A stretch of 32,000 bases of DNA from Haloquadratum walsbyi C23. GTDB lineage: Archaea; Halobacteriota; Halobacteria; Halobacteriales; Haloferacaceae. The number at the start of each line of letters is the position of its first letter. Position 1 is the stretch's first letter. The stretch lies in assembly GCF_000237865.1 (NCBI RefSeq), contig NC_017459.1, positions 540,001-572,000 on the forward strand, written 5' to 3'. The notes beneath the pieces are model-generated. The model was not told the DNA's origin, made no database searches, and saw only the letters and a program-made list of their open reading frames with translations. This document shows positions 19,995-32,000 of the stretch, piece after piece. The position numbers were made by a program, and so were the translations under genes.

Positions 19995-21101
19995 ATGATT
20001 CGTCCCGTTGATGCAGAGACAATACAGGATATTTGCCGGGACGTAGCCTTGGATAACTACGGCTTCCTGTATGTTAATGATCATAAAGAGTATATCCAAA
20101 CGGAGTATGAAAGTGCCGAGACGGGTCTGAGAACCGCAGGTACCGTGTCATTATCCGATATTAAACAGACGTTACAAGACGATACTGGCAGAAATGGATT
20201 TGAACGTCGACGAAATGGTGTGTATTATTTTAACTCGTTCAATTCACGCGAAGGTTATCGGGTGAGTGATGAATTGAAGAGTATTTTTACATACGATTTT
20301 GTCGTGAATAAACAAACAATCGAATCACGATTTGATATCGCCCCTGCTGATGTTGACTTTTTTGCATCTGAACTTGCGAATGAGGATTATATCCGGCGGA
20401 TTGCTGCCGGTGAGCGTGCTTATTATGTCAGCGGTCCCCGATTGAAAGATGAAACCTCAGGCGATGCGAGTGTTGACTCACGTCTAAATGAAGAAGCAGA
20501 ACATGGCACGATATCTCACACGGACTTAGAACGAGTTATTGACGTTGCTGCGACGAGCGATGTCATTCGATTTTTTGAGAAGAATGACTTCATTGCCGAT
20601 ATTGATGATGAATATGTTGTCAAAAGTGCACTCGACGATTATGCTGCTCATCTTGCAAATGCAGTCAGTGAAGATTCGATTGAAGAATTCGGCGATATTG
20701 GGATTCTTCCACTTTCTGAATTCCAACAAGTAATTGAGAATGAGATCAATGACCGCTTTGATGTTCTCAAACATCTTTCACATGGTGATACATCCGAACT
20801 GCTTGAATTAGTTCGTGAACACATAGCAGCGAATAATGGACTTACTGTTGATAGAAAATTAGCAATCGATTCTGAACAGTTCGAAATTTATGTAACTCGC
20901 CGGGCGACGCAGATACGCGATGATATTGAGAGTGAACAACAACCACCGAGTCCAAGTGCGTATCGTGACCATGGGTATCCACAGATTGAATCGATTGAAG
21001 TAACAGATTCACAGCCAGTCAATCAGCATCTACGTGAGCATATCAAGGAGAAATTTGATACACTGGTCAATGAGCGGTTCTCCGTTGAGAGTGACGTATA
21101 A
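19995..21101 (+). CDS. Acidic hypothetical protein with repeated winged-helix-like modules
   Basis: 368 aa with no TM or signal. At least three segments follow a helix-helix-wing pattern, for example 'ADVDFFASELANEDYIRRIAAGERAYYVSGP' and 'HTDLERVIDVAATSDVIRFFEKNDFIADIDDEYVV'. The fold assignment is an inference only. Confidence 0.7.
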   Translation: MIRPVDAETIQDICRDVALDNYGFLYVNDHKEYIQTEYESAETGLRTAGTVSLSDIKQTLQDDTGRNGFERRRNGVYYFNSFNSREGYRVSDELKSIFTYDFVVNKQTIESRFDIAPADVDFFASELANEDYIRRIAAGERAYYVSGPRLKDETSGDASVDSRLNEEAEHGTISHTDLERVIDVAATSDVIRFFEKNDFIADIDDEYVVKSALDDYAAHLANAVSEDSIEEFGDIGILPLSEFQQVIENEINDRFDVLKHLSHGDTSELLELVREHIAANNGLTVDRKLAIDSEQFEIYVTRRATQIRDDIESEQQPPSPSAYRDHGYPQIESIEVTDSQPVNQHLREHIKEKFDTLVNERFSVESDV

Positions 21102-21208
21102 GCATGGACTAATATGAAACTGTACCTCAATATATCACATAACAGATCTATTATCCCGAGTAGCTATATCAGATAAACCCACGTGGTCAAATTAACCAAT
21201 TTAACATC

Positions 21209-22273
21209 ATGCCACAAACATACAGCGACTTTACCATTACAGAACAGGGCGGCCATCAATACATCATTGCACAACCGAAGGCAGAACATCAAGAACCAGT
21301 CCGGTTTTCTGGCGAACTTAAAGAGACAGATGATATTGATGCGACATTTCGAGATGTAATTAAAAGCCTTATTCAACAAGACCTTTCTGAAGCTTTGAAT
21401 CTTGAGTCTGGTTCCGGCGGATCAATTGGTCGAGATGACGTTGTTGAAACGCTGATCAATGCAGATTCTCCAGTTCCAATTAATTCTGAGCAACAAGCGG
21501 AGGCGATTGTTGATTACTTTCTCACAAATGGGGTGCTTCAAGAAGCCGACAGTGGTTCAGAAGTAGTTGTCCTTTCAGATCCGGAGTCACTAGCGGAGAT
21601 TGCGACCGAGAGTGGCGATAATGACGATACAGCGATGTTGCTTAATTGGATGTCCGCTATCGAAGGATGTACCACAAAAATTCAAGAGACAAACGACACG
21701 ATTGAAGAAGTTGAGGCTGAGCTCCGCGAACAAATGGGTAATGTAGATGTCTCTGGGAAACTTCGCGAGTATCAGCAAAATCAAAAGGAGGTCGCACAGC
21801 GACTCATGAATGTCACGAACGGCGGTGAACTCAATCGCTCAGATCTAAGTGCTGATGAACAAGCAGAATATGATCGACTTGAACACCGAATGTTCCATCT
21901 TGAGTCGATGATTGATGCAGTTGGTGCTGGTGGAGATCTTGATCAAGAAATCCAAGAGATGACAAATAAACTCTCAATGCATATGAGCAATCTCTCTGAT
22001 ACGCAAGATGCACTTGAGGTGCAACTTACGCGTCTTGAGCGGGTTTATCGCGTCAATGATGAAATAAACTACGAGCAGGCAAAGAAAATGGCTGAAAAAC
22101 TCTCAAGTGTTGCATCGGCGGTTGCTGGTGTTTCGGACGCCGATACACTCGCAGAAGAAACAGATACAATCGGTCGCGCCTCCGCAATTCTTGAGCAAAC
22201 TGGGTCAACTGAAGAGATGGCACAGACAGCAAGCACCGATACTGGGACGACCAGTTACGAACAAGGGAATTAA
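21209..22273 (+). CDS. Acidic coiled-coil hypothetical protein
   Basis: 354 aa. The N-terminal ~130 aa looks globular. The rest is long heptad-like helical sequence ('IEEVEAELREQMG', 'DALEVQLTRLERVYRVNDEINYEQAKKMAEKL'). There is no TM or signal. Confidence 0.7.
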   Translation: MPQTYSDFTITEQGGHQYIIAQPKAEHQEPVRFSGELKETDDIDATFRDVIKSLIQQDLSEALNLESGSGGSIGRDDVVETLINADSPVPINSEQQAEAIVDYFLTNGVLQEADSGSEVVVLSDPESLAEIATESGDNDDTAMLLNWMSAIEGCTTKIQETNDTIEEVEAELREQMGNVDVSGKLREYQQNQKEVAQRLMNVTNGGELNRSDLSADEQAEYDRLEHRMFHLESMIDAVGAGGDLDQEIQEMTNKLSMHMSNLSDTQDALEVQLTRLERVYRVNDEINYEQAKKMAEKLSSVASAVAGVSDADTLAEETDTIGRASAILEQTGSTEEMAQTASTDTGTTSYEQGN

Positions 22274-22282
22274 TCCCAGGTA

Positions 22283-23248
22283 ATGTACGCTCAGTCGCTT
22301 CTCGGCAGTGTACGACGACTTACGCTCCGCAGTAAGTACCTGCTCAATCAGCGACAGCTAAACGCGGATTCTCTTATCGCAACTGGACGTCAGTTTCTCA
22401 CAACACTTAGTACAGTTGATGCACTTATTGTCGAGGCGACTCCACTCCCAGTGCTCGTTCCGGGAGATGATTACACCACGCTGTCTCGCAGTGACAGCGT
22501 CACCCTCGAAGTGAATGTATCTGACTACACAAAATCGAACAAAGATACCTCAGACATGACCGACGACACCGAAAGTAGAAAATATAACAAAACTAATGTC
22601 GATCTTGATAAAATAACTCAGGAAATCCTTTCTGGCGAGCAACAGAATATGATGGATTCAAATCATATTAGTGACATCAACACGATCGTTTCATCTTATG
22701 ATAACTCCGATGAGCGTAATAATGATAGCGGTGATGATACCACTGCGTCTGCTCATTCTGGAGTATCAACAGCACCGTCCAAACGCGATGAGGGATTGAT
22801 TGCTACTCTTGCTGCTCACCTCTCGATGAACGGATCCCTTCGGATTAAAGCACTGAATGAAAGTATAAAGCAGCGCGCGCGTCGGTCGCGTCGTGTTCAT
22901 ACCTCACCGATGAACTCACAGTTTCGGATTCCACTCACCGACGATGGTCCAGGTGCGCACAACTGGCGACCCGTCATTCGAACCCTTATTGATCGATTTG
23001 ACACACTTGTTCCACTGTGTGAACAGATTATCAGCCGACTCTATGATGTTTCACCAGAATCGGTTGCTACTCAATTATGGAGAAGTGCCGTTGATACGCT
23101 TTCCGAGATGCGAACTGTCCTGAAAATACACCTTGCCAAACAGGAGCGACTCCGACGATTGTATGATCGCCCATCACGGCAACCGGCTGAGTTTGCCGTG
23201 CAGACAGTTAATCAACTCACAGGAATCGACGTGAGGACCGACCAATGA
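22283..23248 (+). CDS. Hypothetical protein (helical ends, disordered acidic/Asn-rich middle), translationally coupled to the AAA+ ATPase
   Basis: 321 aa. It starts 9 nt after the previous stop, and its own stop overlaps the ATPase start (ATGA at 23245-23248). The helical termini are richer in Arg/Lys than those of its neighbours. Confidence 0.7.
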   Translation: MYAQSLLGSVRRLTLRSKYLLNQRQLNADSLIATGRQFLTTLSTVDALIVEATPLPVLVPGDDYTTLSRSDSVTLEVNVSDYTKSNKDTSDMTDDTESRKYNKTNVDLDKITQEILSGEQQNMMDSNHISDINTIVSSYDNSDERNNDSGDDTTASAHSGVSTAPSKRDEGLIATLAAHLSMNGSLRIKALNESIKQRARRSRRVHTSPMNSQFRIPLTDDGPGAHNWRPVIRTLIDRFDTLVPLCEQIISRLYDVSPESVATQLWRSAVDTLSEMRTVLKIHLAKQERLRRLYDRPSRQPAEFAVQTVNQLTGIDVRTDQ

Positions 23249-24963
23249 GTAGTACACTCAATCTTGACCCATTGACAAAGACTGATCGACCGACCTCACA
23301 TATCACCGTTCAAAAGCGTAAAATTGGACCGACAGATCTGATTGCAGTTGAACACGGCACGACAAAAGCATATTTTCGCGTTGACCGAAAGCAGGAGGTA
23401 ATGAGTAATGACCTTCGAAATGCAGTATACCTACATGAAAATGCTGCCTCAGTGTTTGGTGGTATTGACCATAGCCTCCCATTCCGGATCCATACCGATG
23501 TTCGAACCAGTGAGGTACCGACATGCGATGAAGCGGTGATTGCTAATGATAATGTTAACGCTGATAAATTATCCACGCACCTTGCTTCTGAGCGATTTCT
23601 CCTTCATCATGGTATTGAGGAAGTGACTAGGCTTGATGGACATCTCGTCTCTTTTGATATCGTTGAGACAACTCCGCAGGGCTATCCAACAGTCATGATA
23701 ACGGATGAAACAGACATCGAGGTTATTGATGAAAGTGAGGCCGCAGCACGAAAATCACAGGCAGGTGATGCAAGAAATAGCCCCGGAGGGGCAACTCCTC
23801 CCACTCCCGGTAATAATCCTCCTCCTTCGAGAGCGTCTGATGCGGGCGAGATGGACGTTGATATTGATATTTCCCCTGAAAAACCAACGGTTAGCTTCGA
23901 AGAGGATGTTGCCGGTCTTACTGAGATTAAACAGACAGCCCGAATGCTCCTTGCGTTGTTCGATCCAGAAACACGAGAGAGCGTCATCACACGTTATGGC
24001 GAGAACTTCGGCGCTCGGGGGGGGCAGTTACTTCTCTATGGTCCCCCCGGGTGTGGAAAAACGCTTGTTTCGGAGGCTATTGCGTATGAAGCAGCGAATA
24101 ATACCAATATTGAGTCTGAATACGGTGAAGTGCAGTTTCTTCCTGTCAAAGGTGGTGACATTCTCTCGCGGTACCCTGGTGAGGCAGAACGCCGAGTTGA
24201 GGCAGTCTTTGAAGAGGCACATCGTGCTGCACAAAATGGGTTTGCTGTCCTATTTTTTGATGAAGTTGAAACGCTTGTAGCCGACCGAAGTGATGATAAC
24301 TTACAACGGCATGAGCGTTCGCTCACAAATGCGTTTCTCCAAGAGATGGGCACAGACAAGATTGAAGATAATCTATTAGTTATTGGTGCAACAAATATGC
24401 CATTTAGCATCGATCCCGCTGCGGCACGCCGCTTCCCACTTCAGCAATTTATTCCACAACCCGGTCCAGAAGTGATGGGTGAAGTATGGGAAGCAGAACT
24501 GTCTGACCTGCAAGCAGCAAACGATGCTATCGAACTTGATTATAATCGTCTTGGTGAGGCATCCGTTGGATACACACCGGCTGAGATTGCCGACCGTGTT
24601 CTTGGAACCGATCTCCAGCGTCAATTGATTAAGAGTGTTGTTGATGATAACACAGATGCGATTATCCCAGATACGGAATACTTTCTTGACCGCCTTCGTG
24701 AACATCGTCCAAAGACGATTCGTCAGTTTGTCACGAGTGTTCGGAATGAGGCTGATGCACTTGAGGGCTATCCTGAGATGCGAGATTATGTCGCTGATCA
24801 AGCTGACCGACTTGGTCTTTCGATGCAACATGGTAGCACCTCTGGAATGAGCGATGCGGCTTCTGACCCCACCGCACTGTTTGAAGAGTTGGTCGCTGCA
24901 GACGAACAATTAGCCGGAGATGCTGACGATGGCTCCGAGTCTCAATCTGATAGGGAAAAATAA
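23245..24963 (+). CDS. AAA+ ATPase with one AAA module and a Cdc48-type N-domain (CDC48 subfamily-like)
   Basis: 572 aa. Walker A is 'GPPGCGKT' (24040-24063) and Walker B is 'VLFFDEVE' (24247-24270). The pore-loop region is 'LSRYPGEAE'. The SRH is 'GATNMPFSIDPAAARRF'. The N-domain segment 'LVSFDIVETTPQGYPTVMITDETDIEVIDE' parallels p97/VAT '[10 protein letters not shown]...'. Confidence 0.95.
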   Translation: MSSTLNLDPLTKTDRPTSHITVQKRKIGPTDLIAVEHGTTKAYFRVDRKQEVMSNDLRNAVYLHENAASVFGGIDHSLPFRIHTDVRTSEVPTCDEAVIANDNVNADKLSTHLASERFLLHHGIEEVTRLDGHLVSFDIVETTPQGYPTVMITDETDIEVIDESEAAARKSQAGDARNSPGGATPPTPGNNPPPSRASDAGEMDVDIDISPEKPTVSFEEDVAGLTEIKQTARMLLALFDPETRESVITRYGENFGARGGQLLLYGPPGCGKTLVSEAIAYEAANNTNIESEYGEVQFLPVKGGDILSRYPGEAERRVEAVFEEAHRAAQNGFAVLFFDEVETLVADRSDDNLQRHERSLTNAFLQEMGTDKIEDNLLVIGATNMPFSIDPAAARRFPLQQFIPQPGPEVMGEVWEAELSDLQAANDAIELDYNRLGEASVGYTPAEIADRVLGTDLQRQLIKSVVDDNTDAIIPDTEYFLDRLREHRPKTIRQFVTSVRNEADALEGYPEMRDYVADQADRLGLSMQHGSTSGMSDAASDPTALFEELVAADEQLAGDADDGSESQSDREK

Positions 24964-24969
24964 TCACAT

Positions 24970-27900
24970 ATGTCTGAACACTCCTCAACCGCATCAACTG
25001 GCATCGATACAAACCTCACAGAGTTGACGACACTGTCTCTTGGAACAGACGCAATGATAGCTTCCGATATATCGACAATTGCTGTCACGGCGCCAAGCGG
25101 TCATACTGCACTCATTGAAGCCCCTACACAGAACGCTGGAGAAGATATGCATCTTCCTCCGAATGAGACTATTCAGACTATTTCGATTGGTGATAGCACC
25201 ACTGCCCCTGTTATTGACATTGCGCTTGATCGGTATGTATTCTCATTATCCGGAACGACCGTCCAAGCATCCACATCGAGTGGTGTTGAGTTATGGTCAA
25301 CAACCGTCCCAGCGGCGCAATCGCTTACCACGCTCAACACTGACGGTGTTCTTGCCTGTCTCACTGAAACTGGAACAATAATCGGGCTTGATGCTGAAAC
25401 CGGAACAGAACTATTCAGTGTTGACCGACCACATGCAGAGGTCTCGGAACCTCAAGCTATCACGGGTGCTGAAGGGTATCTAGCCATTGGTGCATGGTCA
25501 TTCCTGGTTGTGTTTGACTCAGCGGGTAACTGCATCCTTGAGAAAAATCTTGACGGCACAATCAGCGACCTTGCAGTGCTCTCTGATGCTGTTGTTGTTA
25601 CTCTTCAACATGGTAATATACAACGTGTGTCATACTCAAACGGTGATATCGAGTGGTCACAGCATACAACAGCTAACGATATTGATGGGACCGCAACAGG
25701 AAGTGTGTATGCAATTACGGATAATCATATCACCCATCTTGATGTTGTTGGACGCGCCGATTCGGTTATTAACACTGGTGGTGATCAACTCATGGCGACA
25801 GCAGATCCGACAGTATTGGTTACAACCGATGGAGGCACACAGTCAGTATATCAACAACAGACTGCGACCGAACCGGCGGTCACAGCGACGCTGCTAAGCG
25901 ATACTATTCGTTCTGATGATTCAATACGGTTTCAAATTGAGAATACAGGAACAGCAAACGTATCAGGTAATGTAAAAATCCAACCACCCAAAATGGCACT
26001 TACACTGGGGTCACCGACACCATCGACAGTATCGCTTACACCCGAAGAAGCAGCAACCGTCGCCGCTCCGATTCGTGAACTCCCCTCAGACTCACCATCT
26101 CAATCAGTCACAGTCGATCTATTTATTGACGAGCTAAAAGTTGTGAGTGAGTCTATCAAACTCGCCACACAGTCACCATCATCTGTTGAGACAACTGACG
26201 GTAACTCTGGAGAAAATACCCCAGCGAGCAGTTCAAATCCGATGCATGATACCGATACTGACACTGCTACTGATGCTGTTGAGAAGAACGTCAAGGGCTC
26301 ACAGACTCAAGATTCTATTTCATCATTGCGTAATAAATCATTGTCAGAGTCGTCTACTGACACTCAAATTGAGTCTCCTTCAGAGAACGCCCGTACATCC
26401 GTCGATACATCTAATGAGAATAAGAATGCTGCACAAGTGGATGCGAATTACTCAAATAAGCGTTCTCGTCCATCGCAGTCTGAGTCAACAAAAGCTATCG
26501 ACGCCGCAACAGCGAATGCACAGAGTGGAGAGATAACTACACAGACGAGCATAGCGGCTCAATCTCAGTTATTTGATGATATCGAAACGTCAGTAGACAT
26601 TGAGGCAATTAGAGCCGATCATGCCAGTATCTCTCTCACCGTAACGAACCAATTGGACACTGAGGCAACAATCAGCATTGAGACCGCACAGACTGTTATT
26701 GACGCTGGTGAAACCTCAACACTGCAGACTTCGATTACATATCCCTCCAGCGATGAAATGGGCGATGAGACGGACCTATCATCATTATCATCGACGGTGC
26801 CGACACTTGCCGTAACAGTTGAGGGCAAAACTGAGGAACGAGCACTCATGCCAGATCTTTCTCTTGAGCGACCCTCAATTGATATCACTCCAACTGGCAG
26901 TGTGACGACCCCATTCATCGATATCATTCTCTCGATTCCTTTCGACGTGAGGTTCACTGATAAGCTCTCAGTGATGATTGGTGACACCGAGTTTATACGA
27001 CAAATTACTGTCGATGGTCCAACGAAATTTTATTTTGCTCTCCCAATCTCTACGGCGGTAGTGACGATAGGGACAGTAATCGAGGTTGCTGCGACCCTTG
27101 GTTCAGAGTCAGATACCTCTCTCAGTCATAAAGCACAAATCGACGCAAGCGAGTGGATCGATATTGACTCCGATAGCAAACATGCTACACACTCAGAAGC
27201 CCCCTCATCATCTACGTCTGTCGATCAAGAGATAGCACATCCACTTTCTCCTATTGATGTTGAGTCGGAGACACAGACTATTTCTGACAGCGATGAAATC
27301 GTAAATGCAGATTCAAGCGAATCTTCGATAAGTGAGACAGTTACCAGCGATGATCACCTGCAGGAACTACCAGCAACTACTGCGGATGAGTCGAATAAAG
27401 AGTCGGAGCTACCTCCTAATCAGCAATCTAATGTTACCGTTGCGGAAAAAGAAGCCACCGATGCAGAGCAATCCGCCAGGACAGATATCGAAACGAATCG
27501 AAGTAAACATAACCGAGATGATATATCAGATACATCCACTGATGATACCGATGGTAGCACGACACGTTTAGATCTTTCAAGCGCTCGCAACGCTGGCGCA
27601 AATGATCTGACTGGTGAAAATACACAGCCACATATTACGTCAAACTCTGACGACAGGGGCAAGACTGGCGACGAGCACACTGGAAGAAAAGATGATGTTA
27701 ATGATTCAGACAATACAATAGATTCAGACTCGGATTCAGACTCTGATTCTCAAACAACATCTGAACAGAGCGCTCAAAGCTCGGCAGAATCGGAATCCCC
27801 AGTCGAGTGCACCCGAGTCGTCCCTGATACAGTTCCGTATGGTCACCGATTTGAGGAGTCTATCGTGATCACTAATACTGGTAGTCGGACGATTGAAACT

Positions 27901-28929
27901 GCCAGCATTTCACTCGCAGAGACATCTCTCAATTTAGATGCGATTGATCCAGGCGAGCAGTCGACGGTAACTCGAGCACACGCCGGATTCGATCCTGGTA
28001 GTTGGAATCTTGAACCAGGGCAAGTTATTATTCCAGATGCAACTGTGGATATTCCGCAAAAATCAATTGATATTCAGCCGAATCCGATGAGTGACACTAG
28101 TGCCGACACAAAACAAGTTGCCTCATCTACCGCTAATGTTGACCCATTTATTGCGTATGTCACGCTACATGACGGCATTATACAGTTTGAATGTCATAAT
28201 CTTGGCTCAAGCCCTTGTGATCTCACATCGTTGGCTGCAGATTCTCCTGATAATAATGCCAGTACTATTTCGTGGTCATTTGATGATCCTCCAGTGCTTG
28301 ATGCAGGAGAAACAACACAATTCGAGTGTGGGGGCGGAGCAGACACTGAGAGTCTTACGCCACCGTTCACCGCCCGCATTCGATATCGCCGTACTATCCC
28401 CGAAGATGATCATGAATCAACGCTCGAACATACCACTCTTGCGATTCCTCAAACGGCAGCCGCGACCGGCGGTGATACCCCACTCTCGCTATCAGTCCAA
28501 CCAGAATCTCAACCAGTTATTGATGAGCATAACACAGTCGCCTGTACACTCACGACAGATGCATCAATAACTGATGTAGTTGTCGAGGCAACAGGTGATA
28601 TTGTCGCACCATTGTCTGTTGGTGAGCGAAGTCTTGGAAGGGTTAAAAATGGACGGACAAACAGACAGCTATTCGACATAACCCCACAGCAGGGTCCGAC
28701 AGCATCATTTCATGTTCGCGTAAGTGCAACGCTTGATGGAAGTTCATTTTCACAGCACTATCGCATCACTGGTCCAATTGAGCGCTCTGATTCATCAAAT
28801 CTAGACGAATCAGCATGGCAGGTGGTCCCGGTAGCTGACACAGAGACAGCAGAAGCAGAAGCAGAAACAACACCTCCAAATGTCCGAGTTACGACGACGC
28901 CTCAGGTTCAATCAAAAAGTCACCACTAA
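24970..28929 (+). CDS. Giant acidic protein: N-terminal PQQ/BamB-like beta-propeller, several beta-sandwich (CARDB/Ig-like) modules and two long disordered acidic regions; no signal peptide
   Basis: 1319 aa. Propeller-blade-like repeats include 'GTIIGLDAETGTELFSV', 'VVVFDSAGNCILEKNL' and 'GNIQRVSYSNGDIEWSQ'. Beta-sandwich-like segments include 'IRFQIENTGTANVSGNV', 'ISLTVTNQLDTEATISI', 'IVITNTGSRTIE' and 'FECHNLGSSPCD'. Low-complexity stretches lie at about 26170-26600 and 27150-27800. Confidence 0.85.
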   Translation: MSEHSSTASTGIDTNLTELTTLSLGTDAMIASDISTIAVTAPSGHTALIEAPTQNAGEDMHLPPNETIQTISIGDSTTAPVIDIALDRYVFSLSGTTVQASTSSGVELWSTTVPAAQSLTTLNTDGVLACLTETGTIIGLDAETGTELFSVDRPHAEVSEPQAITGAEGYLAIGAWSFLVVFDSAGNCILEKNLDGTISDLAVLSDAVVVTLQHGNIQRVSYSNGDIEWSQHTTANDIDGTATGSVYAITDNHITHLDVVGRADSVINTGGDQLMATADPTVLVTTDGGTQSVYQQQTATEPAVTATLLSDTIRSDDSIRFQIENTGTANVSGNVKIQPPKMALTLGSPTPSTVSLTPEEAATVAAPIRELPSDSPSQSVTVDLFIDELKVVSESIKLATQSPSSVETTDGNSGENTPASSSNPMHDTDTDTATDAVEKNVKGSQTQDSISSLRNKSLSESSTDTQIESPSENARTSVDTSNENKNAAQVDANYSNKRSRPSQSESTKAIDAATANAQSGEITTQTSIAAQSQLFDDIETSVDIEAIRADHASISLTVTNQLDTEATISIETAQTVIDAGETSTLQTSITYPSSDEMGDETDLSSLSSTVPTLAVTVEGKTEERALMPDLSLERPSIDITPTGSVTTPFIDIILSIPFDVRFTDKLSVMIGDTEFIRQITVDGPTKFYFALPISTAVVTIGTVIEVAATLGSESDTSLSHKAQIDASEWIDIDSDSKHATHSEAPSSSTSVDQEIAHPLSPIDVESETQTISDSDEIVNADSSESSISETVTSDDHLQELPATTADESNKESELPPNQQSNVTVAEKEATDAEQSARTDIETNRSKHNRDDISDTSTDDTDGSTTRLDLSSARNAGANDLTGENTQPHITSNSDDRGKTGDEHTGRKDDVNDSDNTIDSDSDSDSDSQTTSEQSAQSSAESESPVECTRVVPDTVPYGHRFEESIVITNTGSRTIETASISLAETSLNLDAIDPGEQSTVTRAHAGFDPGSWNLEPGQVIIPDATVDIPQKSIDIQPNPMSDTSADTKQVASSTANVDPFIAYVTLHDGIIQFECHNLGSSPCDLTSLAADSPDNNASTISWSFDDPPVLDAGETTQFECGGGADTESLTPPFTARIRYRRTIPEDDHESTLEHTTLAIPQTAAATGGDTPLSLSVQPESQPVIDEHNTVACTLTTDASITDVVVEATGDIVAPLSVGERSLGRVKNGRTNRQLFDITPQQGPTASFHVRVSATLDGSSFSQHYRITGPIERSDSSNLDESAWQVVPVADTETAEAEAETTPPNVRVTTTPQVQSKSHH
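27721..27750 (+). repeat. (Asp-Ser)x5 coding microrepeat inside the giant ORF
   Basis: 'gattcagactcggattcagactctgattct' encodes DSDSDSDSDS. Synonymous codons alternate (tca/tcg/tct, gat/gac), so the repeat is maintained at the peptide level and is not a pure slippage tract. Confidence 0.8.
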
Positions 28930-31609
28930 TTGCTTCTTCTGATTCTTGAGCGTATCGATAGATGGCTCGAAGTTCAAGACTAACGATAATGAGAAATCCG
29001 AACCCAACAGCACCAGCAAGCCCGTATGAGAGTAGCCGCCCGCGTGATAATCGCTGATCAAACGCTGATTGTTCCTCTCGTGCTGTTGTTGCTTGTGCTG
29101 TTGCCCCAGCTGCGTCAAACTTCTCTGTGGCTTCAGCATACGCCTGTGTGATCATTTGCTGGCGTGCATCAACCCGGTCAAGTGCCCCAATCCAGAAAAT
29201 CGGCTGCCCACCAATAGATGTAAGCGTCACTGCTGAAAGATTTGCTTCCGCTTGTCGTGCACGCTGGAGATTATCATTCCCCTCGCTGACAAGCGTGCTA
29301 TATCTCTCGAATGCTGTTTGTGACTGCTGTTGGAACTCATTCGCATCATCTGTATTTCCGGTAAGTGCTGCTAATCGCGCTAGTTGACGCTGTGTTTGTG
29401 CTGTGGTGAGCACAGCGGTCTCGTTATTCTGTGCACGGTCCTGATAGTATGCCCGCTGTTCATCAATTGCGGTTGCAAGCGATTCATCGGCAGCCGATGC
29501 TGCCGTCTCAATTCGATTTTTGACTGGCGTTGTCTCAATTCGGGTTGATGCTGTTTCGAGTGTTCTATACGCTGCCGCTGCCCGAGTAAGTGACCGCTGT
29601 GCAGCAGTATAGTTGCCAGCAGCCTGCTGTTCACGCGCGATTGTGATTTGCTCAATGATCAATACTGAACTTCGACCGGCTGCGCTGACTGTTGTTATAT
29701 CTCCTCTCGCCGTATCTGATCTTTCATCACTTCCCTCACGAAGTCTGTCTGCTAACGCTTCCATTGCTTCTGCTGATTCTGTTGCAACGACTGCGCGGTC
29801 ACTTTCTTCAGGAATATCAGATTCTTGAAGCGATTCGACTGTTGCAGTGAAATCAATCGGTCGGGGAGTCGCTGTAATTGTGATTGTCTCAGTGTCGACA
29901 TTTGACCCTGTAATTTCATATCTCCATGTATACGTGGTGAAGAACTCCGCTCGCGTATCAAACTGTAATGTGGTCACAAACGGTGCTGAGTCACCAGCCT
30001 CAAGTGATGATGGTCGTTCTTCGACGCGAAGCCACCCACTATCCGGTCCAGACACCTGTTCAATATTGAACCGACGGACATCTTGATATCCCAGTCGCTC
30101 GCTGATATCGGTACTCCGCGTGACACGCTGGGTTGCAACAACCTGCCCGTATGTCACATCGCTTTGCCCGGCTTCTATGTCCGTCTCGTGGTCGACAGTC
30201 ACTGTTGAGGATGTTGTTGTCTGTCCTGGCTCGGCAGCATCGATACTGACGTCAAGCCGCCGATCTCCTTCATCTGCAGTTGCACCAGCTGCCACCGAGA
30301 CCTCAACACTCTGTGTTGATTGTGCTGAGATTGTGTCTGGTGCTGAGACAATATCTGCACGCAAACCGCTCCCGCTCACTGACGCATCGACATCCTGAAT
30401 ATCCATTGGGAGATCACCACCATTTTCCACAGCGACACGAACAGTCTCACTGAATGACTCACGCTCTGCCTGCGGTTCGTCAAATGAAATAATCTTATTA
30501 CTTGCCCCGACAGCACCGTAGTATGCTGGATATATAACCCGTGCATCAAATCTGAGATTCGCACTCACGCCGTCCGGATCTGCGGGTCGGAACGTAGCTA
30601 TCCACTCAAGTTGCTCATATTGTTCAGCATCGTCACTTGCCTGAATTGACACACTTCCATCGTCAGACCCTCCTGCAGAGATTCGATTTGGCGGTGATAA
30701 AGAAAGTGATCCATCCCCACTCCGGCGTGTGTAGTCGACATCAATATCTTCGACTGATTCATCACCACCCTCCTCTCTGAGTGTAAATGATTCTTCTGTC
30801 GACTCGCCTATGAGAACATCACCAAGATCAATCGTTCGATCCGACGCCGAAAGAACTGGTGCCTTGATAATCGCAACATTAATTCCAAATGACTCTGAGC
30901 TACCAGTTGAGTCAGAAACTATCACATCAATTGTGTATGTTCCTTCTGAGACCGAGTCTGAGGCGGTGATTTGCGCATTCACCGATTCACGAGAGCCCGC
31001 TCGAATCTCTCCAGGTGAAGTGAGATCAACACGAATCCCTGATGGGCTATTATCGACTGATGCTGAAATCCCTGTCATAACGCCATCACCCACATTTGGT
31101 ATCTCAACATCAACCGTGGCTGACTCAGTTGATCTACCCTTGAACTTAATTTCAGTGCGCTTTCCATCCACCGACCCAAAGCGTGGCTCTAACACATTGA
31201 CATCAACTGAGAGACTCTCAGAATATGATCCGCCACCACTGACATCAACCGTCGGTCTAAAGGAGTATGTTCTTTCGTCTGCACCACTTCGCGCTGTTGC
31301 TCTATATTCAATTGTGTACCGCTGTCCATTCCGAACGGTAAATGAGCTAGCACTCTGTAATTCAAATGTCACGTCACCACCTGCCTGGTCCTCACTCCGC
31401 GGTGTGACACTTGCCGTTCCATTTGCATTCGCGGTGAATGTATAGCTCAATCTCGTTGAATCGCTATCATTGTCTTCAGCTGATTGAATCTGTACCGTGC
31501 CACTTTCTGCGGCGGTTGCAACACCTCCCGCAGCAATCATCGATATAATGAGAAGAGCAATTACAGCTACCTGCAAAGTGGCACTTTGACATCGGCTCAA
31601 CTCACCCAC
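28889..31609 (-). CDS. Large membrane-anchored surface protein: N-terminal signal/anchor, beta-sandwich array, Ala/Gln/Thr/Arg-rich helical stalk, C-terminal TM helix
   Basis: 906 aa. The start is GTG 31609 (alternative TTG 31600). The N-terminus is 'LQVAVIALLIISMIAAGGVATAAESG'. About 570 aa of repeated beta-sandwich-like sequence follows ('TVDVEIPNVGDGVMTG', 'YTIDVIVSDSTG', 'VRVAVENGGDLPM'). Then comes a helical region of about 270 aa, then 'LLSYGLAGAVGFGFLIIVSLEL' and an acidic tail. Confidence 0.85.
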   Translation of the reverse strand: MGELSRCQSATLQVAVIALLIISMIAAGGVATAAESGTVQIQSAEDNDSDSTRLSYTFTANANGTASVTPRSEDQAGGDVTFELQSASSFTVRNGQRYTIEYRATARSGADERTYSFRPTVDVSGGGSYSESLSVDVNVLEPRFGSVDGKRTEIKFKGRSTESATVDVEIPNVGDGVMTGISASVDNSPSGIRVDLTSPGEIRAGSRESVNAQITASDSVSEGTYTIDVIVSDSTGSSESFGINVAIIKAPVLSASDRTIDLGDVLIGESTEESFTLREEGGDESVEDIDVDYTRRSGDGSLSLSPPNRISAGGSDDGSVSIQASDDAEQYEQLEWIATFRPADPDGVSANLRFDARVIYPAYYGAVGASNKIISFDEPQAERESFSETVRVAVENGGDLPMDIQDVDASVSGSGLRADIVSAPDTISAQSTQSVEVSVAAGATADEGDRRLDVSIDAAEPGQTTTSSTVTVDHETDIEAGQSDVTYGQVVATQRVTRSTDISERLGYQDVRRFNIEQVSGPDSGWLRVEERPSSLEAGDSAPFVTTLQFDTRAEFFTTYTWRYEITGSNVDTETITITATPRPIDFTATVESLQESDIPEESDRAVVATESAEAMEALADRLREGSDERSDTARGDITTVSAAGRSSVLIIEQITIAREQQAAGNYTAAQRSLTRAAAAYRTLETASTRIETTPVKNRIETAASAADESLATAIDEQRAYYQDRAQNNETAVLTTAQTQRQLARLAALTGNTDDANEFQQQSQTAFERYSTLVSEGNDNLQRARQAEANLSAVTLTSIGGQPIFWIGALDRVDARQQMITQAYAEATEKFDAAGATAQATTAREEQSAFDQRLSRGRLLSYGLAGAVGFGFLIIVSLELRAIYRYAQESEEAISGDFLIEPEASS

Positions 31610-32000
31610 GGAGCATCGCCCCCAGAAGTAATGAATCGCCGCGCGTGGCAGCTGTCATATCACGTTGCCACAAGGCTACCCGCCAGCCGATGATTCCGAT
31701 GATAATCCCAGTAATAGTACTATACCCAAGAATAAGTGTCGTACTCGCGACTGCCAGTGTATCACGCCGTTGGGCAGCAGCTGATTGTGTTGACTGCACC
31801 GTTTCAAGACGCTCTGTCATCTCATGTTTTTCAGCGATTTCGGTTGCTTGGTCCGCGTCATCAACAGCTTCCGTGGCGGATCGATACTGCTCAAAAACTC
31901 CGGCACCGTACGCACTGATCGCGGTTCCTGCTCCATCGCAGTTTGAGCAGGCCGAAATAAATGTCTGCGCTGAAGCGACAGATGCGTTTAATTCGTCGCG
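31602..32000 (-). CDS. 3' end of an upstream ORF truncated by the window edge; helical region plus C-terminal TM anchor, with the same C-terminal plan (helical stretch then TM helix) as the 906-aa protein
   Basis: I translated the minus frame by hand and it stays open from 32000 down to the TGA at 31602-31604: '...RDELNASVASAQTFISACSNCDGAGTAISAYGAGVFEQYRSATEAVDDADQATEIAEKHEMTERLETVQ...LILGYSTITGIIIGIIGWRVAL...'. The track shows only the part from the internal Met (31602-31820). The stop overlaps the GTG start of the 906-aa gene. Confidence 0.6.
   Translation of the reverse strand, partial: RDELNASVASAQTFISACSNCDGAGTAISAYGAGVFEQYRSATEAVDDADQATEIAEKHEMTERLETVQSTQSAAAQRRDTLAVASTTLILGYSTITGIIIGIIGWRVALWQRDMTAATRGDSLLLGAMLRG

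Follow-up and report, generated by a model that had tools for sequence, protein, structure and literature searches.

The five-gene operon of Haloquadratum walsbyi C23 analysed here is, essentially beyond doubt, the cytoplasmic operon of the Halo_adaptin ESCRT-like system of Halobacteria, a system that is already known, solely as a computational prediction (Makarova et al. 2024, mBio 15:e00335-24; PMC10936438). The window, i.e. the whole stretch of 32,000 nucleotides under analysis, is H. walsbyi C23 NC_017459.1:540001-572000, and the locus (HQRW_RS02535-02575) served as the exemplar of the system in the study of Makarova, Tobiasson, Wolf, Koonin and colleagues. The identity is essentially certain and without any difference, because the ATPase encoded by ORF4 has the same sequence as WP_014555335.1 / CCC39489.1, the gene coordinates in Table S2 of that study are those of the window raised by 540000, and the same parts are described there; the flanking MutL and NUDIX genes likewise agree with its tables. 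The published labels are wH for ORF1, wH plus coiled coil for ORF2, putative ESCRT-III for ORF3, Vps4-like ATPase with a VAT-N domain for ORF4 and propeller/Ig "adaptin-like" protein for ORF5, with membrane/Ig proteins and a CetZ-like tubulin named as neighbours; as arCOGs had also been assigned to four of the five genes, the first-pass annotation erred in calling the machine undescribed. We regard this system, working by an ESCRT-type mechanism, as the best explanation of the operon, with somewhat better than even chances, the mechanism itself being a plausible inference. The features are:

19995..21101, + strand: ORF1 (A1), tandem winged-helix protein, 368 aa (AF2, Foldseek; arCOG from Tables S1/S2 of PMC10936438)
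21209..22273, + strand: ORF2 (A2), globular N-terminal domain (aa 1-~145), coiled coil and acidic tail, 354 aa, arCOG11741 (family alignment)
22283..23248, + strand: ORF3 (A3), small helical-propensity protein, 321 aa, labelled ESCRT-III-like, arCOG15282, in PMC10936438 (alignment, ATGA overlap)
23245..24963, + strand: ORF4 (A4), AAA+ ATPase, 572 aa, arCOG01307 "Vps4" (exact match to WP_014555335.1; PF00004)
23245..23739, + strand: ORF4 N-domain, aa 1-165, predicted Cdc48/VAT/p97/NSF-type double-psi barrel and beta-clam (AF2, Foldseek)
24970..28929, + strand: ORF5 (A5), propeller and Ig-like giant, 1319 aa (PF13360, 7-genus alignment, KD scan; Tables S2/S3 of PMC10936438)
28889..31609, - strand: ORF6 (B4), membrane protein, 906 aa (with the RefSeq start 883 aa, ending at 31540)
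31602..32000, - strand: 3' part of B3, membrane-anchored protein of 398 aa, arCOG12846, cut by the window end

Re-reading of the sequence gave the same five plus-strand ORFs (368, 354, 321, 572 and 1319 aa), coordinates and intergenic gaps (107, 9, -4 and 6 nt) for operon A as the first-pass annotation. ORF3 and ORF4 overlap in an ATGA (caATGAgt, 23245-23248) that is preceded, 9 nt upstream, by a Shine-Dalgarno-like GTGAGG, which agrees with the translational coupling proposed for this junction. The Kyte-Doolittle scan detected no TM or signal segment in ORF1-4 and no TM segment in ORF5, merely one weak hydrophobic stretch (aa 688-711), as expected from the first reading; ORF3, described there as more basic, is the least acidic protein of the operon (pI 6.3, versus 4.1-4.5 for the others). 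The order A1-A2-A3-A4-A5 was retained at every locus examined in 10 haloarchaeal genera (Haloquadratum, Haloarcula, Halopenitus, Halobiforma, Halorussus, Halorubrum, Natronomonas, Halobacterium (pHS2), Natrinema and Halobaculum), even where the proteins are no more than 22-35% identical. Since each genus has different genes on either side, the five genes stay together as one block. This synteny is far beyond chance: the homologues are not scattered, the outcome that a gene-neighbourhood search had been proposed to probe, and operon A is both conserved and tightly coupled.

The five genes are nevertheless half of the unit, because a convergent operon B, which extends past the end of the window and codes for a divergent CetZ-like tubulin GTPase as well as five membrane proteins whose large Ig-like regions are extracytoplasmic, is conserved together with them in most genera; the "compact five-gene cytoplasmic machine" thus stands as an operon but not as the whole. 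Apart from its novelty and this completeness, the architecture first proposed was borne out, with its parts list of a winged-helix repeat protein, a coiled-coil protein, a more basic helical protein, a Cdc48-N/AAA+ ATPase and a giant of propeller and beta-sandwich domains. The layout recurs in 10 genera and, where the retrieved DNA reaches far enough, comprises 11 genes in two convergent operons, the Halobacterium salinarum plasmid pHS2 (operon A: OE_RS12000-12020) being among the loci with this layout; operon B convergently adjoins operon A in nine of the 10 genera, and in Halopenitus operon A has no adjacent operon B. ORF6, the last gene of operon B, overlaps ORF5 by 41 nt at its 3' end and is the convergent neighbour of A5 in nine genera; its product is type-I-like, with Ig-like domains and a long helical region between an N-terminal signal/TM and a C-terminal TM, lies for the most part outside the cell according to the KD scan, and is the second "adaptin appendage" protein of PMC10936438. 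B3 has the full coordinates 571602..572798 (Table S2, PMC10936438), and past the window end follow B2 (a 1096-aa polytopic Ig protein), the CetZ-like tubulin (410 aa), up698 and up373. To the published description we add that two more membrane genes upstream of the tubulin gene appear to be part of the unit, and that B3 and B4 have their Ig-like bulk on the extracytoplasmic side. The tubulin homologue scores above the PF00091 threshold and conserves GGGTGNG and a C-terminal helix/tail; it is very divergent (E 5.7e-6) from its closest solved relatives, 4B46 and 4B45 (presumably CetZ1 and CetZ2 of H. volcanii).

Also new with respect to the published system are distant variants with extra tubulin paralogues and with MoxR and VWA genes. 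One metagenomic variant contains all five genes, and in a second, L013, A1-A4 are present but a tubulin gene replaces ORF5. In very distant variants (22-39% identity) A1-A4 are still linked to tubulin-family genes, with one to three tubulin paralogues nearby, one of them directly after the ATPase gene in place of ORF5. Mrr_cat, MoxR and VWA genes adjoin the distant variants.

Several features might suggest a mobile accessory island (a defence or plasmid-maintenance module) instead of a cell-biological machine, i.e. the patchy distribution among genera, copies on haloarchaeal megaplasmids (that on pHS2 is flanked by ISH8, ISH6 and TnpB elements), the Mrr_cat, MoxR and VWA neighbours of the distant variants, and weak PADLOC matches of the AAA core to IetA and TRIP13. 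However, these PADLOC matches reflect generic AAA similarity, the partner proteins match no defence model, PHROGs gave nothing specific, the 11 genes include no nuclease, integrase or toxin, and the H. walsbyi locus has the native composition already remarked on in the first-pass annotation as well as housekeeping flanking genes, and we consider such an island very improbable. That the operon resembles no proteasome, gvp, pilus or defence cassette, as first suggested, is in line with the PADLOC result.

ORF5 begins with a PQQ/WD40-like beta-propeller (aa ~1-300; PF13360 E 1.4e-7), followed by several Ig-like beta-sandwich domains with hypervariable low-complexity linkers between them; in the 7-genus alignment WSFL is invariant and VxNxG Ig-like modules are repeated, and the "adaptin" similarity is below Pfam detection. 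Such domains (PQQ propeller, CARDB-like Ig modules, S/T/D-rich linkers) are typical of archaeal surface proteins, no Sec/Tat signal was found in ORF5 of any of the seven genera, its gene directly follows that of the unfoldase, and operon B codes for one polytopic membrane protein plus two bitopic ones whose Ig-like domains are extracytoplasmic, all of which would fit a non-classical export or surface-structure assembly pathway, in which the AAA+ protein would unfold ORF5, which would pass through B2 to be displayed on the envelope together with B3 and B4. We think this unlikely, however, given that B2 has no homology to known translocons or secretion ATPase partners, that ORF5 gives way to tubulin in variant L013, and that the winged-helix protein, the coiled-coil protein and the tubulin would be left without a role.

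The ATPase ORF4 consists of an N-domain (aa 1-165), a low-complexity linker and one AAA+ module (aa ~212-520) with a single PF00004 match (aa 262-404, E 1.3e-27). All motifs are intact (Walker A GPPGCGKT, Walker B VLFFDE, pore loop SRYPGE, SRH ATNMPFSIDPAAARRF) and do not vary within the family; judged from its sequence, ORF4 is a catalytically intact AAA+ ATPase with the single module first reported. The Cdc48-N fold was undetected by sequence methods (Pfam CDC48_2 at E 0.0026, below its cut-off; no match of a family profile in the PDB at E<=10). The AlphaFold2 model of aa 1-165 (pLDDT 91.4, pTM 0.86) matched VAT-N (1cz4, E 1.2e-7), p97-N, Cdc48-N and NSF-N in Foldseek over the full length (E ~1e-7, TM 0.54-0.70), and modelling thereby confirms the Cdc48/VAT-type N-domain called in the first-pass annotation. 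As in the Cdc48/VAT/p97 segregases, the double-psi barrel and beta-clam match throughout and the AAA module has its nearest sequence relative in VAT/p97 D2; here too the ATPase gene is accompanied by genes for dedicated partner proteins, in this case without UBX, Ufd1 or Npl4 homology. Unlike these segregases, ORF4 has one AAA+ module, not tandem D1-D2, and its SRH is of the RRF (Vps4/katanin) and not the RPGR type. By score ORF4 is equidistant from Cdc48-D2 (105 bits) and the NCBIfam CdvC model (103 bits), its closest PDB sequences are VAT and p97, and its SRH has the form "DPAAxRRF...IPQP", which we take to be the Vps4/meiotic-clade type. The tubulin-severing ATPases katanin and spastin also belong to the RRF type.

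A possible, though doubtful, alternative is a putative machine that, rather than being an ESCRT, would remodel the linked tubulin/envelope complex in the manner of Cdc48 or katanin. By means of its VAT-type N-domain and with ORF1-3 as adaptors, the AAA+ hexamer would extract subunits from a CetZ-like filament or from the membrane complex of operon B, or unfold them, and so control how an envelope-spanning cytoskeletal apparatus is assembled and turned over; ORF3 would be an adaptor or substrate. This alternative is consistent with the shared RRF-type SRH, with VAT and p97 as closest structures by sequence, with the full Cdc48/VAT/NSF N-fold, through which segregases bind adaptors or substrates, with the linkage of the A module to tubulin-family genes in nine of 10 genera and to one to three paralogues in distant variants (once in the place of ORF5), with the retained GGGTGNG and C-terminal helix/tail of the tubulin homologue, and with the absence of an ESCRT-III signal from ORF3. 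Against it, operon A of Halopenitus lacks an adjacent tubulin gene, the gene order is like that of ESCRT loci, and the published Vps4 phylogeny puts the ATPase within arCOG01307 (PMC10936438).

In the favoured ESCRT-type mechanism, ORF1 and ORF2 would assemble a scaffold at a membrane complex, where ORF3, proposed to be a diverged ESCRT-III-type polymer (PMC10936438), would form or cap an assembly; the ORF4 hexamer would dock via its N-domain, thread and disassemble this assembly with ATP and so recycle it, the propeller and Ig domains of ORF5 would select partners or cargo, and the tubulin homologue would position or shape the site, the predicted net output being membranes remodelled so as to sort proteins or form vesicles (PMC10936438). 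The gene order (wH, wH plus coiled coil, small helical protein, ATPase) and the overlap of the small ORF3 gene with the ATPase start mirror archaeal ESCRT-III/Vps4 loci (PMC10936438), and the apparent Vps4/meiotic-type SRH, the CdvC score (103 bits) and the invariant ATPase motifs also point to ESCRT. The AF2 model of ORF1 (pLDDT 87.4) matched UFL1 (E 3e-7), SelB, RPC62 and ESCRT-II 3cuq (E 0.02-0.06), the last of which may speak for ESCRT; however, UFL1 and SelB, not ESCRT-II, are the best structural matches, and these are generic tandem-wH scaffolds. Among 1.84e9 representatives, the ORF1 family accounts for just 49 clusters. ORF2 gave nothing beyond weak SMC-related and coiled-coil matches, and the published wHTH call for its aa 1-144 has an HHpred probability of 67 (PMC10936438).

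ORF3 is fast-evolving and of moderate helix propensity, with a conserved N-terminal helix and NWRPVI core and a low-complexity insert (aa ~62-168) specific to Haloquadratum; sequence searches retrieved homologues from Haloquadratum only, and the positional equivalents in other loci (200-245 aa) align. Its published ESCRT-III call has an HHpred probability of 33% (PMC10936438). We did not reproduce this assignment: nine family members had no Snf7/PspA match in Pfam at E<=10, the family profile retrieved no ESCRT-III, PspA or Vipp1 chain from the PDB at E<=5, and the hhalign probabilities were 0.09% for validated PspA and 0.12% for validated CHMP1B, with controls no lower. ORF3 as ESCRT-III, the hinge of the ESCRT mechanism, is thus unsupported here at the sequence level. 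Moreover, ORF4 has no MIT domain, the reader of ESCRT-III tails, by Pfam or Foldseek and is equidistant from Cdc48-D2 and CdvC, the adaptin similarity is invisible to Pfam, ORF6, one of the two "adaptin-like" proteins, is apparently mostly extracellular, Halopenitus has no adjacent operon B, and haloarchaea without ESCRT components still produce vesicles (PMC10936438), so that the ESCRT reading stands on weak ground.

The archaeal Cdv/ESCRT-III-Vps4 systems (CdvA-CdvB-CdvC; euryarchaeal "main" clade) share with this locus a small gene immediately upstream of and coupled to the ATPase gene, a single-module AAA+ with RRF-type SRH, winged-helix and coiled-coil partners and a membrane-associated context. 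However, the locus described here has a Cdc48/VAT N-domain in place of MIT, no detectable ESCRT-III/Snf7/PspA homology in ORF3, no CdvA, and an additional tubulin homologue and envelope operon, in a host that divides with FtsZ. The 410-aa tubulin homologue shares PF00091 and GGGTGNG with the CetZ cell-shape proteins (Duggin et al. 2015; Brown & Duggin 2023, PMC9856176) but is very divergent, lies outside the cetZ1/cetZ2 neighbourhoods and groups with "non-canonical" tubulin-superfamily proteins, off the main CetZ branch. The FtsZl1 proteins (Makarova & Koonin 2010, PMC2875224) differ in size (~1050 aa), in their vWA / protein-kinase / OmpA context and in lacking Cdc48-N/AAA+, wH or propeller-Ig partners, whereas both systems have a divergent tubulin-superfamily protein predicted to work with membrane proteins, and variants L012 and L013 likewise carry VWA and MoxR-type AAA genes.

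The locus consists of five plus-strand ORFs (ORF1-ORF5, also A1-A5; operon A), which were recovered at exactly the coordinates that the first-pass annotation had assigned to them.

Genes of operon A (window coordinates)
19995-21101, plus strand: ORF1, 368 aa
21209-22273, plus strand: ORF2, 354 aa
22283-23248, plus strand: ORF3, 321 aa
23245-24963, plus strand: ORF4, the AAA+ ATPase, 572 aa
24970-28929, plus strand: ORF5, 1319 aa

From ORF1 to ORF5 the junctions measure 107, 9, -4 and 6 nt; where ORF3 and ORF4 overlap, the sequence is caATGAgt, and a GTGAGG motif lies 9 nt before it. The sequence of ORF4 is exactly that of WP_014555335.1 (CCC39489.1), which is the example given for the Halo_adaptin clade of Vps4-like ATPases (arCOG01307), a clade without MIT domain but with a VAT-like N-domain, whose partners are two winged-helix (wH) proteins (arCOG11740, arCOG11741) and two propeller/Ig 'adaptin-like' proteins (Makarova et al. 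2024, PMC10936438). Table S2 of that paper lists for H. walsbyi C23 the genes 561209..562273, 562283..563248, 563245..564963, 564970..568929 and 568889..571540(-), and MutL at 555507..557825 (PMC10936438); because these coordinates equal window positions plus 540000, the window corresponds to NC_017459.1:540001-572000 and contains the exemplar locus of its Figure S7. The gene order arCOG11740 (wH), arCOG11741 (wH and coiled coil), arCOG15282, ATPase, propeller/Ig protein is found in the window, as are the VAT/Cdc48-type N-domain, the adjacent CetZ-like tubulin, a membrane protein and further Ig-domain proteins. The locus is thus almost certainly the Halo_adaptin exemplar, and the system is already described, computationally only, as a published prediction; a search of the literature from 2024 onward for 'Halo_adaptin' returned only Makarova et al. 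(2024) and its preprint. The first-pass annotation was right in its parts list and in its synteny but not in calling the machine undescribed, since locus, parts and conservation were published in 2024 with the same genome as example. As a discovery the locus therefore adds little, although its biology remains interesting; what is added here is that the ESCRT-III call is weak, that the unit comprises 11 genes in two operons, and that a full plasmid copy is usable for experiments.

Loci for comparison were gathered by a single-sequence locus search (4 genomes), extended through contigs encoding homologues and a plasmid collection. The order A1-A5 is kept in Haloquadratum (two strains), Haloarcula, Halopenitus (two species), Halobiforma, Halorussus, Halorubrum and Natronomonas, and also on megaplasmids of Halobacterium salinarum R1 (pHS2), Natrinema and Halobaculum; the same five-gene order thus occurs in 10 genera in total, and the genes flanking A1-A5 differ in every genus. 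Beside operon A lies, in 9 of the 10 genera (the exception being Halopenitus), a convergent operon B with a tubulin gene. The conserved unit is therefore an envelope-spanning one of 11 genes in two operons, tightly linked to a non-canonical tubulin, and the 'compact five-gene cytoplasmic' set of the first-pass annotation makes up half of it. This comparison shows that a soluble five-protein set around a single-ring AAA+ protein, predicted to be active and to bind adaptors or substrates through its N-domain, is conserved, and that it is genetically coupled to envelope-spanning membrane proteins and the tubulin homologue.

Operon A is flanked by ordinary chromosomal genes (TRAP transporter, photolyase, formate/nitrite transporter, PfkB kinase, MutL, NUDIX) in a window of uniform GC (~45%) that contains no tRNA or Rfam features. 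Directly upstream of the operon, a 318-aa membrane protein (window:18758-19714, minus strand; arCOG09100, weak CARDB match) is encoded, and H. walsbyi J07HQW1 has a second, partial copy of its gene (L001:3962-6197), which points to a local duplication in that strain, in the interval separating the NUDIX gene from ORF1. All four other proteins of operon A are more acidic than ORF3 (pI 6.3). A gas-vesicle, provirus or defence-island origin of the operon was rejected on the basis of the housekeeping flanks, the native composition and the absence of tRNA and Rfam features. A mobile or defence island is a very improbable explanation. PADLOC gave no system-specific defence match: the AAA core of the ATPase matched the IetA and TRIP13 models, ORF2 had one match (E 0.098), and ORF1, ORF3, ORF5 and ORF6 had none. 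Among 72,556 PLSDB plasmids five carry an ORF1 homologue, all of them haloarchaeal. The pHS2 copy (NC_010369.1:165445-183414) comprises the full 11-gene system on a megaplasmid and is preceded by ISH8A, ISH8B and ISH6 transposases and a TnpB gene.

Makarova et al. (2024) proposed that, of the archaeal ESCRT-like systems, Halo_adaptin has diverged furthest (PMC10936438), and an ESCRT-like mechanism that follows their published model appears to us the most likely one, with a probability that approaches but does not exceed an even chance. ORF1 and ORF2 would then form the scaffold of a site at which ORF3 assembles on the membrane complex, the ATPase would dock through its N-domain and take the ORF3 assembly apart using ATP, the propeller and Ig domains of ORF5 might serve to select partners, and the site might be positioned or shaped by the tubulin homologue, the net output being a membrane remodelled for sorting or to form vesicles. 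In favour of this mechanism, the operon mirrors archaeal ESCRT-III/Vps4 loci in its order of genes (wH, wH with coiled coil, small helical protein, ATPase) and in the translational coupling of the small gene to the ATPase gene. Against such a function it was noted that haloarchaea without ESCRT still make vesicles (PMC10936438).

The ATPase itself combines characteristics of two families. ORF4 contains one AAA domain (PF00004, aa 262-404, E 1.3e-27 in Pfam) with intact Walker A (GPPGCGKT), Walker B (VLFFDE), aromatic pore loop (SRYPGE) and SRH (ATNMPFSIDPAAARRF...IPQP); GPPGCGKT, VLFFDE, SRYPGE and ATNMPFSIDPAAARRF are essentially invariant throughout the family, full-length members of which, with 50-70% identity, are found in many haloarchaeal genera. 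The SRH of ORF4 has the double-Arg RRF form of Vps4, katanin and spastin (Vps4/meiotic-clade type) instead of the RPGR form of Cdc48, which favours an ESCRT-like function. For the N-domain, the Pfam model CDC48_2 stayed under the cut-off (E 0.0026), and a profile of nine sequences had zero matches in the PDB at E<=10. However, when 23 homologues were used to model aa 1-165 with AlphaFold2 (pLDDT 91.4, pTM 0.86), the resulting structure matched VAT-N (1cz4, E 1.2e-7), p97-N, Cdc48 and NSF-N over the full length in Foldseek (TM 0.54-0.70). The Cdc48-N assignment made by the first-pass annotation, although invisible to sequence methods, was thus upheld, and the modelled architecture is confirmed as Cdc48-N followed by a single AAA+ module. 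ORF4 therefore has the double-psi beta-barrel and beta-clam of the Cdc48/VAT/p97 N-domain but, with its single PF00004 domain, not their tandem D1 and D2 modules. With Vps4/CdvC it has the single AAA+ module, the intact Walker motifs, the aromatic pore loop and the RRF-form SRH in common, whereas the N-terminal MIT domain of these proteins, which binds the MIM motifs of ESCRT-III, is replaced by the Cdc48/VAT N-domain, and Pfam found no MIT domain in ORF4; the lack of this normal reader of ESCRT-III tails counts against an ESCRT-like mechanism. The match to the CdvC model of NCBIfam (103.0 bits) would support such a mechanism, but CDC48, of which only the D2 part matched (105.0 bits vs a cut-off of 803 bits), scored about the same, so that the AAA module is equally far from both models. 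In the PDB, VAT and p97 outscored Vps4B, but through two matched stretches as against one for Vps4B (95 bits). In the published tree ORF4 belongs to the Halo_adaptin clade of the Vps4 family, and its Cdc48-type N-domain was used to argue that Vps4 evolved from Cdc48 (Makarova et al. 2024, PMC10936438).

The ESCRT-III assignment of ORF3, which is pivotal for the mechanism, was not reproducible in independent tests. ORF3 evolves fast, and a homologue search retrieved Haloquadratum proteins only; its positional equivalents in other genera (200-245 aa) are nevertheless alignable, with an N-terminal helix and an NWRPVI core in common. The length of the H. walsbyi protein (321 aa vs ~215 aa elsewhere) is inflated by a Haloquadratum-specific, S/T/D/N-rich low-complexity insert of ~110 aa (aa ~62-168; window:22466-22786). 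Helix propensity in the family, a crude measure, ranges from 0.28 to 0.54, the N-terminal helix being conserved. Nine family members had no Pfam match to Snf7 or PspA_IM30 at E<=10. Among the PDB chains that the family profile matched at E<=5 there was no ESCRT-III, PspA or Vipp1, only coiled-coil or designed-repeat noise. In hhalign, E. coli PspA and human CHMP1B (sequences checked against PDB 4WHE and 8V2Q) aligned to the family with probabilities of 0.09% and 0.12%, respectively, no better than the 0.14-0.24% of the negative controls, and the HHpred probability reported for ORF3 as ESCRT-III was itself 33 (PMC10936438). These results from Pfam, PDB profile and hhalign argue against an ESCRT-like mechanism. 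On the plasmid of Natrinema sp. SYSU A 869 (L015:15995-23653) A3 and the ATPase form a single in-frame fusion (P0111, 765 aa). As Rosetta-stone evidence this fusion was downgraded, because two ORFs stand in place of each of A1 and A5 in the same copy, which is probably decaying or mis-sequenced and so makes the fusion weak evidence of a physical link between ORF3 and the ATPase.

The ORF2 and ORF3 families have a motif in common, 'beta-strand (VVVL/RIPL), loop, invariant NW, helix', aligned by hhalign over 121 columns:

NW-helix motif
window:21554-21733: in ORF2, aa ~116-175
window:22916-23017: in ORF3, aa ~212-245

As a likeness between the two families this was rejected as not significant (hhalign probability 0.24%), and the sequence motif could reflect either common docking or chance.

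ORF1-ORF3 had nothing usable in Pfam, NCBIfam, PADLOC or PHROGs, and a hydropathy scan found no TM or signal segment in ORF1-ORF4. The AlphaFold2 model of ORF1 (pLDDT 87.4) is a chain of winged-helix units, for which Foldseek placed UFL1 (E 3e-7), SelB and RPC62 on top; the ESCRT-II chains 3cuq_A/B and 2zme, ranking 17-30 (E 0.02-0.06, low TM-scores), add weakly to the case for an ESCRT-like system, but the TM-scores are low throughout, which points to a generic tandem-wH scaffold. An HHpred probability of 95 against 3CUQ_B was reported for this protein (PMC10936438). The ORF1 family is small (49 clusters among 1.84 billion representatives). According to the family alignment, the N-terminal part of ORF2 is globular and conserved, and a coiled coil and an acidic tail come after it; its profile retrieved only coiled-coil or designed-repeat noise from the PDB.

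In ORF5 a PQQ-type propeller (PF13360, E 1.4e-7) precedes several Ig-like modules of the 'VxNxG' kind, and the linkers between these are hypervariable. The greater length of the Haloquadratum protein (1319 aa vs ~1000) goes with lineage-specific S/T/D/N-rich low-complexity inserts at aa ~390-530 and ~750-960, and a short tandem repeat of 12 nt (27721-27749) lies inside one of the ORF3/ORF5 inserts. The protein has a single weak hydrophobic stretch in the hydropathy scan, and no signal peptide was found in its family in seven genera. For the 'adaptin' label, Makarova et al. (2024) reported HHpred probabilities of 91 (TRAP-beta) and 77 (alpha-adaptin) at aa 1175-1275 (PMC10936438); an Ig-like fold of this kind is common. 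In Pfam, neither ORF5, nor its C-terminal 179 aa, nor ORF6 matched adaptin or TRAP-beta, and that this similarity is invisible to Pfam weighs against an ESCRT-like mechanism, as does the extracytoplasmic position of one of the two 'adaptin-like' proteins. ORF6 (B4; window:28889-31609, minus strand) is convergent to ORF5 and overlaps it by 41 nt at the 3' ends (28889-28929), which could lead to transcriptional interference between the two operons; the orthologous pair of Haloarcula rubra overlaps by 38 nt, and other genera have a gap. The longest ORF6 reading frame (906 aa) has a GTG start and an 8-nt overlap with the stop of B3, the gene upstream of it; the RefSeq product is shorter (883 aa, start at window 31540).

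Operon B, which lies tail-to-tail with operon A, comprises in the H. walsbyi locus L009 the genes up373, up698, Tub410, B2 (1096 aa), B3 (398 aa, extending beyond the window end) and B4 (906 aa). All products except Tub410 are membrane proteins, five in number: B2 is polytopic, and for both B3 and B4 the hydropathy scan shows a signal/TM at the N-terminus and a TM segment at the C-terminus, which would place their Ig-like bulk outside the cell. Tub410 (410 aa) is a soluble, very divergent tubulin homologue (PF00091, 40.9 bits vs a cut-off of 33), whose orthologues retain the GGGTGNG signature and a T7-like xIDxxD motif. Among solved structures it comes closest to 4B46 and 4B45 (H. volcanii CetZ1/2), at E 5.7e-6 only; this weak match sets it apart from CetZ proper, and Makarova et al. 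(2024) likewise placed it outside the main CetZ branch (PMC10936438). Typical cetZ1/cetZ2 neighbourhoods, FtsZl1 (Makarova & Koonin 2010; proteins of ~1050 aa in a vWA/kinase/OmpA context) and the arCOG01314-type secretion system of Makarova 2015 were all rejected as matches for the locus.

The persistent linkage to a tubulin gene brings in a second explanation, in which the ATPase, with ORF3 as its adaptor, would remodel the linked tubulin or envelope complex in the manner of Cdc48 or katanin. We regard this main rival of an ESCRT-like mechanism as possible though doubtful, and a non-classical export role for ORF5 as improbable. The remodeller explanation gains from the most distant members of the ORF1 family, found on metagenome contigs of high GC and acidic proteome (L012:1-17743, L013:1-21221), in which the A1-A4 module (22-39% identity) is linked to one to three tubulin-family paralogues, so that the linkage is even multiplied. 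These paralogues are mutually dissimilar, those of 523 and 582 aa having long acidic N-terminal extensions, and one of 406 aa directly follows the ATPase, at the usual position of ORF5; Mrr_cat, MoxR-type AAA and VWA genes are located nearby. A more specific and rather unlikely version dispenses with ESCRT altogether: a single-ring AAA+ protein with a Cdc48-type N-domain and an arginine collar of katanin/spastin/Vps4 type, with ORF1-ORF3 as adaptors, would remodel the tubulin, severing, extracting or recycling the co-encoded non-canonical CetZ-like filaments at the envelope-spanning Ig-protein complex, and ORF3 would be a lineage-specific adaptor, not a diverged ESCRT-III. If true, this would be the first prokaryotic AAA+/tubulin remodelling pair. 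Halobacterium salinarum R1 is genetically tractable, and the full copy on its plasmid pHS2 makes the competing models directly testable.

The genes up373 (373 aa) and up698 (698 aa; together L009:248-3462) lie directly upstream of the CetZ-like gene; the corresponding stretches elsewhere are L014:30837-33107 (pHS2) and L013:16174-19364. Homologues of the 698-aa protein with ~30% identity are encoded beside the tubulin gene on pHS2 and in L013; the 373-aa protein has a sequence match in L013 only, and pHS2 encodes a positional equivalent of 352 aa. The Natrinema and Halobaculum plasmid loci end inside the gene that occupies the place of up698. The presence of these relatives near tubulin genes elsewhere suggests that operon B probably has six genes; the published neighbourhood table ends at the tubulin gene (Makarova et al. 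2024, PMC10936438).
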